DNA of 57,575 bases from Girardia tigrina. Lineage: Eukaryota. Positions 18,310 through 55,970 of this stretch are shown one piece after another; the first letter of the stretch is position 1; every line of letters begins with the position of its first letter. The stretch lies in the NCBI GenBank assembly GCA_001938485.1, contig MQRK01223361.1, positions 39,948 to 97,522 of the forward strand, read 5' to 3'. The notes under the pieces were generated by a model. It saw only the letters and a program-made list of their open reading frames with translations, searched no databases and was not told the DNA's origin. Made by a program: the position numbers and the translations under genes.

Positions 18310-20516
18310 GGTACTTTCACTTTATCTCGTCCCCTAAAATTTTTGATACACCTGTTTCCGATTAGATATGCCATGTAGGTATTTTATTAGATTCCTGGAT
18401 AAAAATATATGTAAATTAATCGGAAAAAAAGTAATCAACCAATGGAAATAGATCTGATCGTCATTCTAATGGATCTTAAGTTATGAGAAATGTGTAGGTT
18501 ATATAGAAGGGGTAGAAAAAAATCGAAGAAACATCATCCCACATTCACAAGACACACACAACTTCAATACACACGCGGATACATACATAATTTAGAAGCA
18601 TTTGTAAGAACCGTAAGCATTTATATATGACAATTGATACATTAAAAAATGAATTAATAATCATAAATTAATAAGTAATAATAAATTAATTAATCAATAT
18701 TCATATTAACACAAATTAATTCATAAATAATCACAAATTAATTAATAAATAATCACAAATTAATTAATAAATAATCACAAATTAATTAATAAATAATCGC
18801 AAATTAATTAAAAAATAATCGCAAATTAATTAATAAATAATCACAAATTAATTCATAAATAATCACAAATTAATTCATAAATAATCACAAATTAATTAAT
18901 AAATAATCACAAATTAATTAAAAAATAATCGCAAATTAATTAATAAATAATCACAAATTAATTCATAAATAATCACAAATTAATTCATAAATAATCACAA
19001 ATTAATTCATAAATAATCACAAATTAATTCATAATTAATCACAAATTAATTAAAAAATAATCGCAAATTAATTAATAAATAATCAAAAATTAATTAAAAA
19101 ATAATCGCAAATTAATTAATAAATAATCACAAATTAATTAAAAAATAATCGCAAATTAATTAATAGATAATCACAAATTAATTCATAAATAATCACAAAT
19201 TATTTCATAAATAATCACAAATTAATTCATAAATAATCACAAATTAATTCATAAATAATCACAAATTAATTCATAAATAATCACANNNNNNNNNNNNNNN
19301 NNNNNNNNNNNNNNNNNNNNNNNNNNNNNNNNNNNATTAATTCATAAATAATCACAAATTAATTAATAAATAATCACAAATTAATTAATAAATAATCACA
19401 AATTAATTAATAAATAATCACAAATTAATTCATAAATAATCACAAATTAATTAAAAAAATAATCGCAAATTAATTAATAAATATTCATAAATTAATTAAC
19501 AAAAAATTACTTTACTAAGCGTCATGAAAGTCATTAAATCATATGAAGGAACGAATGTTATACTGCCCCCCATATAATATGTAATCTGTATAGATTATAT
19601 AATTTCGTTTAGAATTAGAGGAATAACTGGTGGAAGGGATGAATAAAATTGTTAATTAATTAATAAAAAATGAAATAATTAATTATTAATTGATTGAAAT
19701 TCAATCAAATCAAATTTAATTAAATCAATGAAATCAAATTTAATAATTTATTTGTTAAATAAATTATTTAATAAAATAAATAACAAATTAAATAATTTAT
19801 TCATTTAATAATTAATTTATTCTTTACTTAATTTACTTTTTATTCATTTATGTAATAATTGATTTATTGATTCACTAATTTATTTATTCAATGAATTAAA
19901 TTAATTAATTAAAATAAATTAAATTAATTATTATTAATTTATTAATTAAATAAATAATTAATCTTAAAGAATAAATTAATTATTAAATTAAATTAATAAA
20001 AAATAAATAATTAATTAAAATTTATTTAATTTTAATTTATTTATTCAATGAATTAAATTAATTAAAATAAATTTAATTAATTATTATTAATTTATTAAAT
20101 AAAGTAATTAAATAAATAATTAATCTTAAAGAATATATAAATCTTCATAGATTACATTATATGTGGGGGGCAGTATAACAGTCGTACCCGTGGAAGAGTT
20201 GGGCACAGGACAGAATACACCCGTTGATTGGAACGCCCATATGTGTGAAGCAGTTGCCGAACAATTGACTCGACGCCCGCAACAGAAGATTGGTTGCCAA
20301 GACATGATCGTGGAAATTGATGAGAGCATGTATACCAAGCGCAAGAACAATGCGGGTCGTATTTTGCCTCAACAATGGATTTCTGGGGGGTTGTGCCGTG
20401 ACACATGTGAATGCTTCTTTGTCCAGGTTCCAGATCCGAGCGCAAAAACATTGATGATCGAGATCAAGAAGCATTGTTATCAAAAATTTTAGGTGTCGAG
20501 ATAAAGTGAAAGTACC
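18310..20516 (+). mobile_element. Merlin (IS1016/IS1595-like) DNA transposon, defective
   Basis: TIRs GGTACTTTCACTTTATCTCG..., 8-bp TSD aaaaattt/aaagattt, transposase fragment VDW...KIG...IVEIDES..KRK.NAGR....WI.GG. Confidence 0.92.
18710..19495. repeat. 22-bp tandem minisatellite (AAATTAATTMATAAATAATCRC)n inside the Merlin element
   Basis: Directly visible array of roughly 30 units spanning an N gap. Confidence 0.95.
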
Positions 20517-22993: not shown

Positions 22994-23450
22994 TCAGCCA
23001 TGAATATTGAATATTTTTAAAAGTTCCATTAGCTGATTGTCACTTGTAGTATTGTACAATTCTCTTATTCTTTTTATTCTATCTTCATCAGAATGTCTAT
23101 CTCTAATAGCCAATAAATAATATTTGAAAATATTTGAAGCTTTTTTCTTCAGTTTCATTCCAAATTTATCCAAAAAATCTATACCAGCAATCATTTCTGG
23201 ATCTATTTCTTCGACAACATAAAATTCTATTGTTTTATTTACCCTTTCTATCACCTTATTATATTACCTTTAATTGTACAGTTCCATAGTTTACAAATTC
23301 TGAGTCATTCTCACAGTGAATACGCTTCCTTGTTTCTCTAATCTGAATATTTTTCATACCTTTGATTAAATCCGCTTTAATGACATTCACTGGGGCTCTT
23401 GTATCTAAAAGGCACTGAACATTTTTATCTTTATTACAATTGTGTACCAC
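22994..23450 (-). mobile_element. Gypsy protease relic
   Basis: VQCLLDTRAPVNVI...MIAGIDFLDKFG, an aspartic protease pattern with frame breaks. Confidence 0.7.
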
Positions 23451-23614: not shown

Positions 23615-26600
23615 TAAAACAGGCGAAAAGTTCATTTTCAAAACACTGTTTAATTGATAATATTTAAACAAAATATTTATCCAAAAAGTAAATATTAAAT
23701 ATTTCAAATAATTAAAATATCTAATATCCAACACTCCCACAAGATTCGTCCACAGAAGAATCTGAATCCACAATGTAATCATTTAGATAAGGCGGTCTTC
23801 GTCTTTCTCTACTAGGCCTACAGTTCAATGATTGTTTCTCATGTGTTTGATTGTCTGGTAGTGATGCAGTTTCCTCCATATTCATATAGTATGACTTGCA
23901 ATTTTCAAACAAGTCAGGCTGTCTAGGTCGAATGTCTGCGACATGTCTTGGACCACAAAATCCGTTGCAATTTACTAGATATTTCCTTTGATCTATTCTT
24001 TTCACGACAACACCCCTGGTCCATTGCTGTGTACATGGTGTACTGTTTTCCGGTTTTACCCACACTAATTGATTTTCAACATAATCTGGATTTCCACAGA
24101 ACGGCTNCTTTTCACTTCTTCCAATTATATCTAACCCTATGGGCAAATAGCTATATAGCACCGAGCTTGGTGTTTCTTTTCCTTCAGATGGCGTGTTATT
24201 ATACCACCATAAGGCTTCCAAAATGCTGATATTTGATCTGGACGCAATTCTTATTATTCCGTTGTGGTTGGGTCGATTGATGGCACGATACATGACTCGA
24301 ACGTTCCATTTTTCCATTAGTTTGTTGAATTCTACCGAATGAAATGCGGTATAATTATCGATAATTAGTTCCTTGGGAGATCAGCGTTCACAGAACAAAC
24401 TTGAGAATTCTGAGACAATTAACTTGATGTCTTCAGCCTTAATTAATTTCCATATCGCAAAGCGAGAAGGACCACAATCGATTACACTTAAAAATTTTTG
24501 TTGATTGTACTTTGTAACATCCGCAGCAAGTCTTGTCCAGTTTTCGTTGACGCTCAGCCTACCGGTTTTCCATTTTACGGCTGCCGGATCGATGGATTGA
24601 CATTCTTGACATCTTGAAATCAGGTCCTCGATATCCGCGTTTGACACACATATTCCTTGCTTCGCACATAAATATCGCATTCTGTTTGCACCTAAATGAC
24701 ACTTATCATGAAGTTGCTGCAGCTTGAGTAGATCGTCCGTAACCGATAAAAAACAATTGCTTCTTTTTAATTGTTTTGTCAACTCATCTGCCTTGTTAGC
24801 TTCGCTATTAACAAACTCGATCTCATACTCCTGACACAGCTCCTTGATCATCGACAGTCTTCGTTTTATTAAAAGCTCAGATGAAGCCTTGGTATTTAAT
24901 TTTTCGCGATCTGAGATTGTTGTGGTTACCCACGAAACTACTGACTTATTATCCGATTTTACTATCACGCTCCTTAAACCCCATTTGACACATAAGTTTA
25001 AACCCTTTACAACTGCTTCTAGTTCTGCTACATTAATATGTCTAGAATCATCAGTTTTTCTCAACCATGATGCGTCCTCGATTATGTTCCCTTTGACTTC
25101 TAAAGCAGCACCAATGGCTATTGAACTTGCGTCGCACCATATAATACCTTCCCTGCAGTCATCAATAGCCCATAAACCTCTACATGGATCACTCTCCCTC
25201 ACTGTCTTTAAAACCCATTTAATCTTCTCGAATAATTCCTCGTCTATGTTTTCATCCCAAATTCTCTTACTAAGTCGTTTAAGATATGAACATGACGGAC
25301 GTAGCAAATTAGCTAACGGATGCATTCCTACTAATTGTCCACATAACAAATATAACTCGCGACGTGAAATTGATTCCACATACAGCTCATCCCTTACCTG
25401 ATTGTCCCTCTTCCATATCACTACATGTTGGTCCTTAAAGACTTTTATTCCTAAAACTCGAACTTCGTTGGCTTGTGATAGATTTTCAGGTTTTTCTAAC
25501 ATTTGAGACCGAAGTTATTGAACACTTTTTCTACTTCTTCAACAGAAATGAAACTTTCATTTACATAAATATCATCAATATAAGAGTCACTATTTTCACG
25601 CATCTTGGTGTCAGAGTTCAGAATCCACCTGACGATTTCGGTCATTATAGTTGGTGCAATGTTTAAACCAAAACCCATCCCAGTTAAAGCATATTTCTTG
25701 TTATTAATGATACCAGATTGGTAACGCCACATGTCCTTATGAACATGAATCTGCATGTACGCCTCTGACAAATCAAGCATTGAAAAAGTCGAACCCCTAC
25801 GTCGCCAATCGCGGAGCTTTTCTAAACATATGTCTGCAGAACCACTATAAACGTCCACGTAATTGTTTAATTTTCTAAAATCAAAAATGGGTCCTATCTT
25901 GGAATTATTAGCCTGTTATATTCCAAATATCGGTATGGATCCTATCGATTTACCCATTTCTTCCTTATTGTACTCGATTAGATAACCCTTTTCTACCCAA
26001 CCGTCTAAAATTTTCAACGTTGCAACATCTTTTAATTTGTTGTCCTTAAAAACTAACTGACGATTCGGAAGATAACTCGGAGCCTCACTTTTCAAATTCC
26101 ATTTAATCGCCCAATGTTCCCTAAACTCAATTTCAAAATTATGCTTTTTTATACTAACAAGAGGCGCATCCGATGCAGTACAACTCAAGCTACTATCTAT
26201 CCCTTTAATTTCCTCTTCAGCGAACTCAATAACACCCTTATTAATTTTCACGCCGCCCAATTTACTTATGACATCCATACCTATTAAGATCCCTAAACCA
26301 TGCGGCAAATGTTCTATGACCGAACATTCCACCCTAATGATCCTGCCATTTATATTCAGCCGCAATTCACCCGAACCCACTCTAACACCTATCCCAATCG
26401 CCAAAACCATACTTTCTCCGTCAGAAAACAACATACAATCACTAACTAACCCTTTTAAAACAACCGTTTTCGAACAACCAGAATCAATCAACGCTATGGC
26501 TGACCTGTCATTTACGGTTACGATCATCGTCGGCAACGCCGTCAACTGTGAAGGGAGAGAGCCGGCGCCTACAAACTCCCCTGTTCGTTTCCCGACGACA

Positions 26601-27442
26601 ATATTTTGCGACATGACCCGGTTTCTGACATTTGTAGCATATTGTTTGTCTGTTTAATTGCCACTGAGAACTCTTATCATGATTACTTTCCTTCAATTTA
26701 GTGTCTCTCTCACGATGAACATGCAGTCCTTTCTGAAGATTTGCTCTGGGTTTATCGAGTTCGTCCTGACCTCCGGAACTCCCTGTTTCTTTGATGTTGT
26801 TTCCGTGTTGTATTGCTGCCATTGAACCCTGTAATAAACCCTTTTTAATCCCCAAATACCTGTGACTATACTCGATCATTTCGGTCAGGGGTTGGTCGCC
26901 GGCCCGTTCCAAATCCAACTGCAACTCGAAAGGCAATCCAGCCATGAAGGCAGCCTTTGTTAGATCGTCGACCTTCGTTGTTAACATCTTCCCCTGAGAT
27001 GCATATTCATCGATAGTCTCGCCATCGTGATACTGTAAGTTTATTAATTGACTGTAAGCAGAACGTCTAGTCAGGCCGAACGAATTGTTTAATATCTTGA
27101 AGAACCGATCGCAGCTGCTTTGCGTCTTCTCGTCCGATTCCATGTAGATGTTCAGTGCAACACCCGATAGTAAAAAAGGGAGATACAGGACTGGATCAGT
27201 AATCTTCTGGATTTTCATGATCATTTCAAATTTCTTCTGCCAAATCTCGAAACTGATGCTTCCATCGAATTTCTCTAAAAACTCCAAAACGATTTTCATA
27301 TCATTCATTATGCCCGGATAGCTTGTAACACGCGAAAAGTTTATTTTCAAAACACTGTTTAATTGATAATATTTAAACAAAATATTTATCAAAAAAGTAA
27401 ATATTAAATACTCCAAATAATTAAAATATCTAATATCCAACA
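23615..27442 (-). mobile_element. Full-length but decayed Ty3/Gypsy-like LTR retrotransposon with 119-bp LTRs
   Basis: Direct repeats 27324-27442 and 23615-23733 (5' copy TG...CA). Gag with CYKCQKPGHVAKYC, protease LIDSGC, RT YIDD, RNase H WCDASS..HINVAELEAV, integrase HHCC and LAADVT. Contains frameshifts and stops; no clear TSD. Confidence 0.95.
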
Positions 27443-27984: not shown

Positions 27985-29700
27985 AGAGGAATATTTTCAT
28001 ACATACAATCAAACATACATCTGCATTGACTTTCTAATGAAGCACACTGATCACCTCTCCCTGTGATCGTGCATCCTCGTTTCCCTGATCATCTCTGAAT
28101 TTTTTGTAACAAATTTTTTAAAAGTTATTTACTTTATTTAAATTATTATTAAAATTTGAAACGATTTAATAATTTAAAGTTTTTAAATATCTTTTGCTGT
28201 AATTTAAAATGCAATTATGCTCGAATAACAATTCATCGTGAACATCCAAAGTATCAATTTTCCATCTGGGTTGGAGAAACACATTTCCAAATACTAAACT
28301 CCACATACAAAATTCAACATACTAAATTTAAAATATTCCTCATATCCCCCTCGATTTAAATGGCTTTAGCCATTCCACATTTCTGATCAATATTCTACCA
28401 TCATCTAATTGTATCTCGTAACTTCTTTCATTTCGTTGGTTCTTTATTGTGGCTGGGCCCATATATCGATCATCATCCTTCGTTAACGTTTCTTTCTTAA
28501 TAAGCACTTTATCTCCAATTCGGAATACTCGTTTCGTTTGTGTCGTGCATTTATTAATTTCCTTCTCGACATGTCTTTTTCCCCGGTGTCTCTCAACAAT
28601 CCCATTGGTATTGTGGTGGTAAGGACTGGAATATACTATCTCAGCTTTAAATATATTTGCTGTTTCTTTAAAAATGGCTGATTCGAAGGTTTTTCCTATA
28701 TCGACATGGATTTCTCTTAGTGGTCCGTATTTCTAAATCAATTTGTCTAGTAATACCTTTCGCACGGTTTTCTCGTCTTAATGAGCTACTGCCTTCACAC
28801 TGATGTATCTGCTAAATTGATCGATTATTGCTAGTATGTATTGAGATCCATTAATATTTCTTTTAAAAAGTCCGCAGAAATCCATATATATATATATATA
28901 TATATATNNNNNNNNNNNNNNNNNNNNNNNNNNNNNNNNNNNNNNNNNNNNNNNNNNNNNNNNNNNNNNNNNNNNNNNNNNNNNNNNNNNNNNNNNNNNN
29001 NNNNNNNNNNNNNNNNNNNNNNNNNNNNNNNNNNNNNNNNNNNNNNNNNNNNNNNNNNNNNNNNNNNNNNNNNNNNNNNNNNNNNNNNNNNNNNNNNNNN
29101 NNNNNNNNNNNNNNNNNNNNNNNNNNNNNCCCCTGAATAAATTTCCAAAAAAAACTTTTAAATAATAAATTTCAGACCGGAATAAAAATTATATATTTAA
29201 CAAAAATTATCTATAACTTAAAACGGAAAGCCGCTGCGAAAGGGTTAATATGTCTCTCTTTTGTTTTTGTTGTTAGGATCTTTCTTTTCTGAGAATTCAT
29301 ACAACTTTGCACAATTTTCTTTACCGTTTTTCTCATATCTTCCATATCGAAATCATCCTTCAAATAATTATAAACTTTCTTGCTACCAGCGTGACACAGC
29401 ACCTTGTGTATTTCTTCCACGAAATAAGTCATTTTTCCTTTCGGAATCCAGTATTTGTTATCCATTGTCGTTACTATATCATCTTTCAGTAACCATTTCT
29501 TTGTTTTCCCAGTTCTGATATCTGATCTAATCTGTTTTATCTCGTCATTATCTTTCTGCCATTTGAATCCTTTGAATTCATCGTCTAACGCTAGGATTCT
29601 TGTTTTAATTTTACCCTTTTTAGCTTTCTCTATAATTTTTTTCTATAAATCAGTGATGAATTTGTGTGGGTTGATTTGTGATTGTTTTAAATCATTGGGA
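27985..29700 (-). mobile_element. Gypsy integrase relic with PPT and 3' LTR, interrupted by a gap and a piggyBac end
   Basis: EIHKVLCHAG integrase zinc finger, YMGP (GPY/F-like) region, PPT GAGGGGGAT, then an LTR bounded by GAGGAATATTTT inverted ends (about 27985-28341). Confidence 0.75.
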
Positions 29701-32368: not shown

Positions 32369-32520
32369 CTGTGAGGAATATTTTTAATTGTTTGAATGTG
32401 TGAATGTATTGATGTTGTATGTTGATTTGAGTATGCTGAACTTTGAATGGTGATTCTCCCACCCAGATGGAAATTGGTATTTTTTATTTAAATTTAAAGT
32501 GATTGACTATTCGAACATAA
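32369..32520 (+). repeat. Solo-LTR-like fragment (family also at about 45910-46012 and 46600-46685 on the minus strand)
   Basis: Shares the GAGGAATATTT...GT-rich...CCCAGATGGAAA layout with the PPT-adjacent LTR at 28341-28215. Confidence 0.65.
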
Positions 32521-52213: not shown

Positions 52214-52318
52214 GTAAAACGATTTTTGCCACAAAAAATTTAAATTAATTTAACTATCTACTGACAATTGTAAGTAAATAATATGAGCGTTACGCAGATG
52301 AAACATTGGGTTTTTATA

Positions 52319-55300
52319 TGTGGTGATGTCATTCCTCACCACATTCAATAATATTGAACTTCAGTGATGTCACATATCATCACATCAAAGTACAGAGTTC
52401 AAATTCCGGTGATTTCATATGTCATGACGTCACCGGAATATGCAATTGCAAGATCAATTTCAATTGCATCAACTGACCCCACGGTATATTATATAATATA
52501 ATATTGCCTTAATATAAAAGAGGATTTTCAAGTTTCATTGGTTAGCAAACCCCAATCAATATTTTTTTATAATAAATTTTATTATCTAGTTTGCGTTCTT
52601 TACAATGGTGTCAGAATTCGCCGAAGATTCAGTCAACTCAATCCTACCTCAACCTCAGGCATTCTATGTTGATGATGACGGTACGCCCCTTTCTTGGTTC
52701 ACCATCTACGAATTTCACCAACATTGATTTCTTAATCGACTCCGGTTCGTACCTTTCTATTATTCCCCCGAGAATGGCACCAACATGCTCTCCGAAAACC
52801 CCTCTCCGTGCCGCCAACGGTTCGCCAATCCAGACCTATCGAACCATCTCACTTCAATTAAGGCTCTCCAGATTTCAACAAGATATTCAGTGGACCTTCA
52901 CCATTGCCGACACAGTCCATCCACTTCTTGGAGCCGATTTCTTAAGCAGTTATGGTTTTTTGGTCTCATAAAATTATTGAAGCTAATTCGTTTTCCAAAA
53001 TTTCGATCCCTTCCACTTCTTTATCGTCAATAATATCGAGTTGTTCAAAGACGGCCGCTATACAATCATTCATCAAAGATTCTGCTCCCAACTGTTTGTC
53101 CCGCGATCCGGCTTTCTTTTCAGTTCATCCGGTGGTTCACCGCATAATCACCAAGCCATGTCATCCAGTCAGGCACAAGCAACGCGAACTTCCAGTTAAA
53201 TCCAGATCGGCAGTTCAAGAAGAATTTCGACAGTTAGAGAAAGACGGTATCATCCGTTGTTCTTCTTCGCCATGGGCCTCAGCTCTTCATGTTGTCGAAA
53301 AACCGGACAAATCATTCGTCCATGTGGAGATTGTCGAGCGTTAAATTCCCTCACAATACACGATTCATATCCCATACCGTTAATCACTGACATTGTTCAT
53401 CGACTCACTGGTTCAAAAGTATTTTCAAAAATTGATTTGAAGAAAGCTTTTCCCCAGATCCCCGTCGCGAATGAGGACATAGAGAAAACTACAATAATCA
53501 CCCCATTTGGCTTATTTGAATTTCTTCGAATGCCTTTTGGTCTCAGAAATGCAGCTCAATCATTCCAGCGCTACATTGATACGGTTACAGCTGACCTCGA
53601 TGATATTTTCGTTTATTTGGACGACATTCTCATTGCATCAAATAACAAAGATCAACATTTTCAGACTTTTCGTTCGCTTTTCACTATATTGCATGAAAAC
53701 AATCTCCAAATTAATACTAAAAATGTATTTTTTCAGACTTCAGTGAAGTTTCTTGGATTCTAAATCAACTCCTACGGCATCGCTCCTATCCCAGATCGGA
53801 TAAAAGCAATCTCGGAACTCGCATTGCCAGTCACAGTATCCCAACTCAGGAGTTTTATCGGCATGGTAAAGTTCTATCATCGATTCTTACCACATGTTCC
53901 TGAAATTCTTGCACCACTGGTTTCTTTTTCATCGGGACCTAAGACTGTCAAACTCAATTGGACTGAAGATTTAACTTCCCGATTTTCCGAAATTCAGAAA
54001 CAAATTCTCGATTGTCCGCCTCTTATGTTCTATGACCCATTATTACAGTTACAGTTAACATGTGACGCATCCGATATTGCAAATGGAGCTGCATTGCGTC
54101 AAAAGAGGGGACAGATCCTTGAACCTATTGAATTCTTCTCTCGAAAACTTTCAGACACTGAAACCCGATATTCAGCATTCGATCGAGAACCTTTAGCAAT
54201 TCATGACGATGTTTCACATTTTTCACATTTTCTTTCAGGCCGCCAATTCGAGATATTAACCGATCACAAGCCACTGGTGCATCTTATCCAATTGAAAAAC
54301 CCGTCACCTCGACAACATCAAAAGATTTTATATTTATCACAATTTGATTTTTCAGTTTCACATCTTCCCGGCAAGCAAAATGTTGTTGCTGATTTTTTAT
54401 TTAGAAATCCAGTTTCAGCAATATCACTTCTCCCAGATTCAGCTCTCGAGTTGCTTCAGTCTGAAAATCTTTCTAAGGAAGAGCTGGCCGATTTCCCAAA
54501 TCATTATACCGACACTGATGGTATAACTTATGATTCCGTGGATCTCGGTGTCTGAATAATCATCGTTCATACCGGTTTACGCAGGCGCATCTTCAAAGCA
54601 TTCCAAAAATTGCACCATCCGGGTCGAAAAGCAACATTCAAGCTTATTCATACTCGTTTTGTCTGGCAAAACATCACACGTGATATCAAGACATAGTACC
54701 AAGGATGTACCGATTGCCAAAAACAGAAAGTATCGTGGCATATTAAACCATCAGTGATCAGATTTCCAACAGGCAATCGTTTTGAGATTGTACATCTAGA
54801 CATTGTCGGTCCACTCCCTCCTTCAAATGCTCTTATATTTTAACAATGATCGATCGGAAAACAAGATGGCCTGAAGCAGTTCCAATCTCCTCAATTTCTG
54901 CTGAAAATGTTGCTAGACATTTTGTCAACACTTGGATTGCTCGGTACGGTGTACCTTTTCAAGTTATCACGGATCAAGGTCGGCAATTCGAAAGCAATTT
55001 ATTTCAAGCTCTTGCAAAACGTCTTGGATTCAAACACGACCATACGACTTCGTATAACCCACAATCGAACGGTCTTATCGAGCGTTTCTATCGAACCTTA
55101 ATGACTTCCCTACGTTGTTTAGGTACCACTTCAAACTGGCATGATTCTCTTCCACTCGTGTTATTAGGTTGGCGAAATACTTTTCATTCATCTACAGGAA
55201 CTTCTCCTAGTGTTATGTTATTCGGAGCTGGAACAGCTTTCCCTGATGAGATTTTTAGAGAAACGATTGATACTGATCTCGAAGCTTTACATGCCGCCAG

Positions 55301-55869
55301 AAAATACTTCATGTCCTCTGATACAAACCCATCTTTTGGCAACTCTGCCCAGAAATTAACTGCCAAGTTCAGTGCTCTCAGTCAAGTATGTCTGGATCCG
55401 TGAAAGAGATACTCATCATATGAAGCCTCGTTATACTAGACCATTTCAAGTTATTTTTATTAAAGGTAATGTTTCAAAAATTAAAAATCAGGATACCGAA
55501 AAAACCATCAATCTCGAGTGTCTGAAGCCAGCATTCGGTTTTCCCCAAGACGAGAACCAACCCGAACTCCGTTCTTCTCCAAGGAGGCTATGTGGTGATG
55601 TCATTCCTCACTACATTCAATAATATTGAACTTTAGTGATGTCACATATTATCACATCACTAAAGTTCAAATTCCTGTGACTTCAAATGTCATGACGTCA
55701 CCGGAATATACAATTGCAAGGTCAATTTCAATTGCATCAACTGACTCCGCGGTATATTATATATTATTGCCTTAATATAAAAGAGGAGGATTTTCAAGTT
55801 TCATTAGTTAGCAAACCCCGATCAATATTTTATATAATAAATTTTGTTATTTAGTTTGCGTTCTTTACA
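52319..55869 (+). mobile_element. Gypsy (CsRn1/Kabuki-like) LTR element with gag almost entirely deleted
   Basis: LTRs 52319-52604 and 55591-55869, PBS TGGTGTCAGAA (tRNA-Leu 3' end), protease FLIDSGS, RT YLDD, RNase H TCDAS/TDHKPL, integrase TDQGRQF/NGLIERF, PPT aaggagg. Frameshifted. Confidence 0.95.
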
Positions 55870-55970
55870 AAATATATAATTTACATTGCATTTTTTTCAA
55901 TTTTAGAGAAAACAGAAGATTATTATATAAATATGTGAAAAATATATATCGATGTTAATTAAAATATTAC

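Follow-up and report, generated by a model that had tools for sequence, protein, structure and literature searches.

A primer-binding site for the 5' end of host tRNA in a lineage of animal LTR retrotransposons, and its likely use in priming from a short tRNA fragment

The stretch of Girardia tigrina DNA analysed here (57,575 nucleotides of contig MQRK01223361.1, positions 39,948 to 97,522; hereafter the window) carries on its minus strand a 3.8 kb LTR retrotransposon with LTRs of 119 bp and TG..CA termini (Table 1). The features that define an LTR retrotransposon are recognisable in the element and its sister copies, namely two TG..CA LTRs, target site duplication (TSD), primer-binding site (PBS), polypurine tract (PPT), gag and the pol order protease, reverse transcriptase (RT), RNase H, then integrase (PR-RT-RH-IN). 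The pol gene of the window copy is decayed, with in-frame stops and a frameshift, and no TSD was found at its 3' LTR. The LTRs of the sister copies are also 119 bp long and their 3' LTRs terminate in the same ...TTACA, followed by a 5-bp TSD, which is perfect in 6 of 20 long sister loci, the other 14 being gapped, truncated or mismatched. Since the sister 3' LTRs share this end and are followed by the TSD, the LTR boundary is real and no spacer separates it from the PBS.

Table 1. Features of the retrotransposon, in coordinates of the window
Feature	Position	Strand	Remarks
5' LTR	27324..27442	-	119 bp, TGT...ACA; same termini in sister copies with flanking 5-bp TSDs
PBS	27312..27323	-	exact complement of tRNA-Lys(UUU) nt 1-12; spacer to LTR 0 nt
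gag	26508..27308	-	266 aa, one CCHC zinc knuckle; ATG at 27308, 3 nt (ATA) past the PBS
pol	23724..26653	-	protease, RT, DUF7047 thumb region, RNase H (Pfam RVT_3 type), integrase
PPT	23734..23740	-	short, GGGAG end, adjoins the 3' LTR
3' LTR	23618..23733	-	111/116 (95.7%) identical to the 5' LTR, without the last 3 nt

The first approximately 45 nt of the LTR (window 27400-27440) are predicted by folding to form a long AU-rich hairpin. Older retroelement remains surround the element on the minus strand (28300-28880 and 23100-23450), comprising an integrase end, a PPT-like tract and an LTR-like start on one side and, on the other side, part of a protease. Near 32370-32500 the opposite strand carries a related LTR-like stretch, and an AT-rich tandem array with a unit of 22 bp occupies 18540-19400. 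In addition to that, the window holds an ordinary Gypsy element (52310-55880, plus strand) with RVT_1, RT_RNaseH and rve domains, two LTRs and a TGG PBS near 52605.

The 5' LTR junction is organised as the original prediction had it: the minus strand reads ...TTACA and the 12-mer (27323-27312), after which come ATA and, at 27308, the gag ATG, and there is no TGG. The 12-mer had been recognised as matching nt 1-12 of tRNA-Lys(UUU), and four host tRNA-Lys(UUU) genes do begin with its exact complement; a different start of the host tRNA, which had been named as a possible objection, is thereby removed. From nt 13 onward these four tRNAs are unpaired with the element, and the longest match of the junction to the incomplete set of host tRNAs is 12 nt, counted from tRNA position 1. 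The register is constant, with tRNA U12 opposite the first base past the LTR and pairing ending at mature nt 1. Pairing does not extend into pre-tRNA leaders, for which T would be needed at the next position; the Lys-family representatives have A or G there, and one further family has T. For the 12-bp duplex of PBS and tRNA, -25.5 kcal/mol is predicted. The complement of the 12-mer occurs in the whole window a single time, at 27312.

At the genome level the 12-mer has 2,443 matches vs. 11 for the reversed control, and 2,144 copies are preceded by ACA vs. none for the control, so the match is not due to chance. Among the first 30 loci with the 12-mer, 27 have it after ACA, two inside an RT frame and one after an altered LTR end. 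The 27 ACA-preceded loci span several families whose LTRs are unrelated, as are their gag starts. The two loci within the RT frame (L023 and L026; codons S-Y-P-G) belong to a related family of the same clade, and the 12-mer is probably a coincidence there.

A family-level conservation profile selected by the 12-mers is circular, and the genome was searched with a foreign Gag to avoid selection on the PBS. Of the 150 loci that this search listed, 98 were examined; 97 of these were aligned and, after the removal of 15 duplicates, 82 distinct copies were obtained. As many as 77 of them differ from one or the other of two 12-mers at no more than two positions (37 at none), and TGG follows the LTR in none of the 82. 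When the site was left unconstrained in the window's own family, 647 junctions were recovered; among the 100 listed, 67 have the exact 12-mer, 33 are decayed (a tally made by eye) and none has TGG. The LTR end followed by NNTGG has seven matches, probably flanks of 3' or solo LTRs. Near relatives spanning the junction are also found in contigs from four sequencing runs of four studies. Other copies and families thus retain the 12-mer and lack TGG, and the original prediction survives the suspicion that elsewhere in the clade the site would be either canonical or unconserved. The PBS is a real, clade-wide feature.

The second 12-mer recovered by the Gag search is preceded by ACA in 824 genome copies, vs. 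none for the control. Host sequences beginning with its complement go on as a tRNA D-arm for approximately 30 nt before breaking off. The D-arm of these sequences matches published tRNA-Phe(GAA) primers and probes (PMC10505166, PMC7038984), on which basis the second 12-mer is provisionally assigned to tRNA-Phe. This link is weakened because the assembly yielded 5' halves but no complete tRNA-Phe gene of the host. A small host family (L246-L249 and L589-L596) has a common upstream flank and contains only the first approximately 30 nt of a tRNA-Phe-like gene.

Outside the host genome, protein searches revealed three further elements in bacterial assemblies. One of them (L183, on a eukaryote-like contig) has two LTRs, and its 5' LTR is followed by a 12-mer exactly complementary to nt 1-12 of tRNA-Phe(GAA) from human and Drosophila. 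In another (L185), for which the LTR boundary was inferred, ACA is followed by a third Phe-like variant of the 12-mer and then by a decayed gag; a loose pattern, at background level in the three contaminated bacterial assemblies, had pointed to this locus. The third protein match (L184) lacks the junction. All three are animal-type retrotransposons, L183 lying with tRNA-Ser genes and microsatellites, and their presence in bacterial assemblies is likely to reflect host contamination. The L183-type 12-mer had 59 matches in the window's own genome, fewer than the control, and none of 30 loci contained a tRNA. A metagenomic element, L131, displays the PPT, the LTR, the Lys(UUU)-type 12-mer and gag; it was selected on the motif, as one of 120 metagenome matches to a 15-mer, the other 119 of which had no clade protein and resemble chance matches. 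L131, L183 and L184, the external elements that have an RNase H match, share 35-38% protein identity with the element of the window, L183 having about 35%, and a purine tract with a GAG end is found in L131 and L183 as well. In the viral collection no relatives were detected by alignment or by single protein, with 0 of 58 near the Phe-type motif; the tRNAs of this collection that start with Phe-type motifs are Thr genes and are uninformative.

A Gag tree was built from 27 of 38 candidate loci and 13 database proteins, excluding the window's family, the alignment of which was short. The Lys label changes at least three times on well-supported branches, which indicates repeated switching of the primer tRNA with the register fixed. 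L131 was grouped with two host families of the Phe type (support 100/100). The PBS types occurring in this one register are those for tRNA-Lys(UUU), tRNA-Phe and tRNA-Lys(CUU).

The last of these types is evident from variants. Within the first 12 nt, tRNA-Lys(CUU) differs from tRNA-Lys(UUU) only at nt 7, and T>G at PBS position 6 makes the site complementary to the host tRNA-Lys(CUU). This very change accounts for 19 of 37 position-6 variants (among the 100 of 103 matches listed) and occurs in five families, including that of the window, while equivalent transversions at three control positions amount to 12 of 87. The excess is significant by Fisher's test (p = 2.5e-5 raw, 1.7e-5 after de-duplication and, most conservatively, 0.033 for the two largest families only). 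In the Phe type the equivalent change is seen in 0 of 10 cases, and none of the host tRNAs compared matches such a change. Copying of the primer during plus-strand synthesis would be expected to produce an excess of this kind, as would selection of the change through priming by the second tRNA. Some of the Lys(CUU) copies form clusters within two families, and these may go back to shared descent rather than to independent events.

Classification of the element is less straightforward. The pol order PR-RT-RH-IN is that of Ty3/Gypsy (Metaviridae), and the look-alikes of the whole protein in the Atlas are Gypsy polyproteins. At the domain level, Pfam RT_RNaseH is found in 0 of 31 relatives, DUF7047 in 31 and RVT_3 in 30, and the similarity to the Gypsy RNase H within the window is weak (probability 13.8%). 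In the PDB, retroviral integrase and RT match best, with Ty3 behind them. The RT-RNase H part (window 24384-25514) has as its top Atlas matches unnamed clusters with a few Euglenozoa records, which is a lead only. The clade, with an RT-RNase H part atypical for Gypsy, may be an undescribed lineage. Its relatives are widespread and number 525 proteins at E<=1e-10, and the names include a porcelain crab and an argonaut, a comparison confined to the protein level.

Two described groups were considered and rejected. Troyka elements are likewise compact LTR elements of aquatic animals with the order PR-RT-RH-IN and no tether domain, but their ends are CG..CG, their TSDs span 3 bp and their knuckle is of the form CX2CX8-10HX4C, whereas the present element has TG..CA ends, 5-bp TSDs and CX2CX4HX4C (PMC12440569); the Troyka paper does not mention a PBS (PMC12440569). 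Saci2/lennie membership would imply 4-bp TSDs and a PBS for a tRNA 3' end, neither of which was found, as judged by termini, TSD and PBS and from partial descriptions of these elements. The literature on other elements reports an unexplained hairpin in fungal GalEa (PMC5445492) and no clear PBS in bivalve TRIMs (PMC6934838). The texts of PMC6238403 and PMC2774666 contain no PBS terms.

The primers of LTR elements listed in the relevant sections of surveys are the whole tRNA, the tRNA cut in the anticodon and the self-primer (Neumann et al. PMC6317226; Kojima PMC10886601). None of the three describes the present site. Canonical systems, i.e., retroviruses, most Ty3/Gypsy elements, lennie/Saci2 and errantiviruses, also use a host tRNA as primer, place the PBS by the 5' LTR and recopy it from the primer. 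The primer of HIV is likewise tRNA-Lys(UUU). These systems, however, use the opposite end of the tRNA and have TGG, while here no PBS examined begins with TGG or pairs with the CCA end, and a cut is needed; the TGG Gypsy element of the same window provides an internal contrast. In lennie the PBS for the 3' end of tRNA-Leu lies 4 nt from the LTR and TSDs are 4 bp (PMC4558846). The half-tRNA systems (copia, Ty5, Osser, Bryco, Bianca, fungal Copia and Helenus) resemble the present element in having a 3'-truncated host tRNA as primer, a PBS without TGG and primer switching, but in the survey sections cited their cut is in the anticodon arm, where the PBS pairs, and they are reported in Copia-order elements only (PMC6317226, PMC10886601). 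The present element has the order PR-RT-RH-IN and a PBS pairing with nt 1-12, which points to a cut in the D-stem; in the incomplete host tRNA set no pairing with the anticodon arm came near the 12-nt match at position 1, and the anticodon-side segment reaches only -4.6 kcal/mol. As the half-tRNA primers of the copia/Ty5 type are also 5' fragments, the novelty would consist of the register and the D-stem cut, not of the use of a fragment. In self-priming Tf1/Sushi, Tj1 and Tcn1, too, a short PBS pairs with an RNA 5' end and the primer is freed by cleavage, which in Tf1 is reportedly performed on an RNA duplex by RNase H (title of a work cited in PMC4600332). The partner there is the element's own transcript, whereas here it is a host tRNA in trans and the LTR has no self-complement.

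Taken as a whole, the lineage has a PBS for nt 1-12 of mature host tRNA and is likely to start its minus-strand DNA on a short piece of the tRNA 5' end, a reading drawn from sequence patterns and held with this confidence whether the element or a host nuclease makes the cut. The starting point is observed: the PBS adjoins the terminal CA of the LTR, matches tRNA nt 1-12 exactly and sets U12 opposite the first post-LTR base. The element RNA would then invade the acceptor stem and the 5' strand of the D-stem of tRNA-Lys or tRNA-Phe, probably aided by the Gag zinc knuckle. The least certain step would follow, in which the tRNA is cut where the duplex ends, past nt 12 (or possibly 10 or 11), yielding a 3'-OH directed into U5. 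We infer this cut and priming by the 5' piece because a primer needs a 3'-OH at the LTR end and U12 occupies that spot. By analogy with Tf1 the element's RNase H is slightly favoured as the cutter; otherwise a host nuclease producing 5' tRNA fragments may be responsible, though this is rather less probable. Finally, in plus-strand synthesis the primer would be copied as far as its 5' end, with run-off at nt 1; the PBS would thereby be restored at exactly 12 nt and carry the sequence of whichever tRNA had primed, in line with the genomic variants. Plus-strand strong-stop DNA would need no modified-base stop, as its terminus would be set by this run-off, which would also explain the fixed PBS length. 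Across all 31 relatives the four acidic catalytic positions of RNase H are either invariant or occupied by acidic residues, and cutting of an RNA:RNA duplex by the clade enzyme is putative, by analogy. To our knowledge RNase H cleavage of an RNA duplex is known only for Tf1. It counts against the mechanism that, in a tRNA that is folded and modified, the acceptor stem and D-stem are costly to open, and no LTR-PBS-LTR junction with retained primer was found in the genome, the one junction present being without a PBS.

The cutting step is where the most serious competitor enters. A host nuclease might make the 5' tRNA piece in advance, the element merely capturing the fragment; 5' tRNA fragments are common in animals, RNase H would not have to cut an RNA duplex, and all the sequence data presented here are accommodated equally well. 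We nevertheless regard this as fairly unlikely. For host 5' tRNA fragments the usual terminus lies in the D-loop, at 14-18 nt or beyond, whereas in the Lys and Phe types alike the pairing stops at U12, within the D-stem. Moreover, nt 8-12 are common to many host tRNAs, yet the elements examined use few, those beginning with GCC. It is improbable that the 12-mer instead serves as an anchor for a whole tRNA, with a role in packaging, in dimerisation or in controlling the translation of gag, in the manner of the extra boxes of Ty1 and Ty3, with the tRNA 3' end or something else as primer. A bound tRNA could gate translation in most families, where the PBS lies a few nt from the gag start codon, and one of 10 families shows extra pairing with the T-arm (z -4.4); but nine of the 10 share no extra pairing, and nt 1-12 are the one segment whose pairing exceeds that of shuffles throughout the 10. 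Nor does TGG follow the LTR in any copy examined, the element holds no complement of at least 8 nt to the tRNA-Lys 3' end, and an anchor would need neither the zero distance to the LTR nor recopying from tRNA-Lys(CUU).

Self-priming of the Tf1 type, in which the 5' end of the element's transcript would be the primer, perhaps through an added leader and with the tRNA match being incidental, would have identical geometry: in Tf1/Tj1 a short site pairs with the 5' terminus and adjoins the LTR (PMC4600332). The absence of a self-primer from the LTR had been part of the original prediction, and it holds in all 31 representatives, in which complementarity to the PBS is at most 7 nt both in the 5' LTR and within up to 500 nt upstream. 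Three distinct 12-mers, each matching a tRNA start, are also at odds with such self-priming, which we consider very improbable. There is, finally, the unlikely case that the feature is already known but obscurely reported, in Repbase entries or subscription papers, or is a non-functional relic. Conservation across hosts and families with unrelated LTRs excludes a relic, and the primer sections of the surveys list three primer types only (PMC6317226, PMC10886601).

No report of a PBS for tRNA nt 1-12 was found in the literature searched, the scope of which did not include most subscription journals and Repbase, and an earlier description is judged unlikely. Judging from the sequences, priming from the 5' tRNA fragment may be a novel form of cleaved-tRNA priming, one that resembles Tf1 but acts in trans. 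More specifically, and with slightly less than even confidence, we suggest a fourth priming mode, in which the RNase H of an unnamed animal LTR lineage with relatives in decapods, cephalopods and many metagenomes would cut nt 1-12 off a PBS-annealed host tRNA, as Tf1 does on its own transcript, yielding defined ultra-short tRNA fragments. Standard PBS finders would overlook such sites because the pipelines test tRNA 3' ends only (PMC4558846, PMC6317226).

If this is true, a fourth primer type of LTR elements would stand beside the whole tRNA, the half tRNA and the self-primer, the types named in the survey section cited (PMC6317226), one genome alone holding thousands of copies and relatives being spread across animals. 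Such a type would form a mechanistic bridge between tRNA priming and Tf1 self-priming and point to an RNase H with guide-dependent cutting of RNA duplexes. A simple diagnostic would become available for a lineage now recorded as 'no PBS found'. For the host, 5' tRNA fragments would be replication primers of retrotransposons and possibly also their inhibitors, mirroring the 3' fragments.
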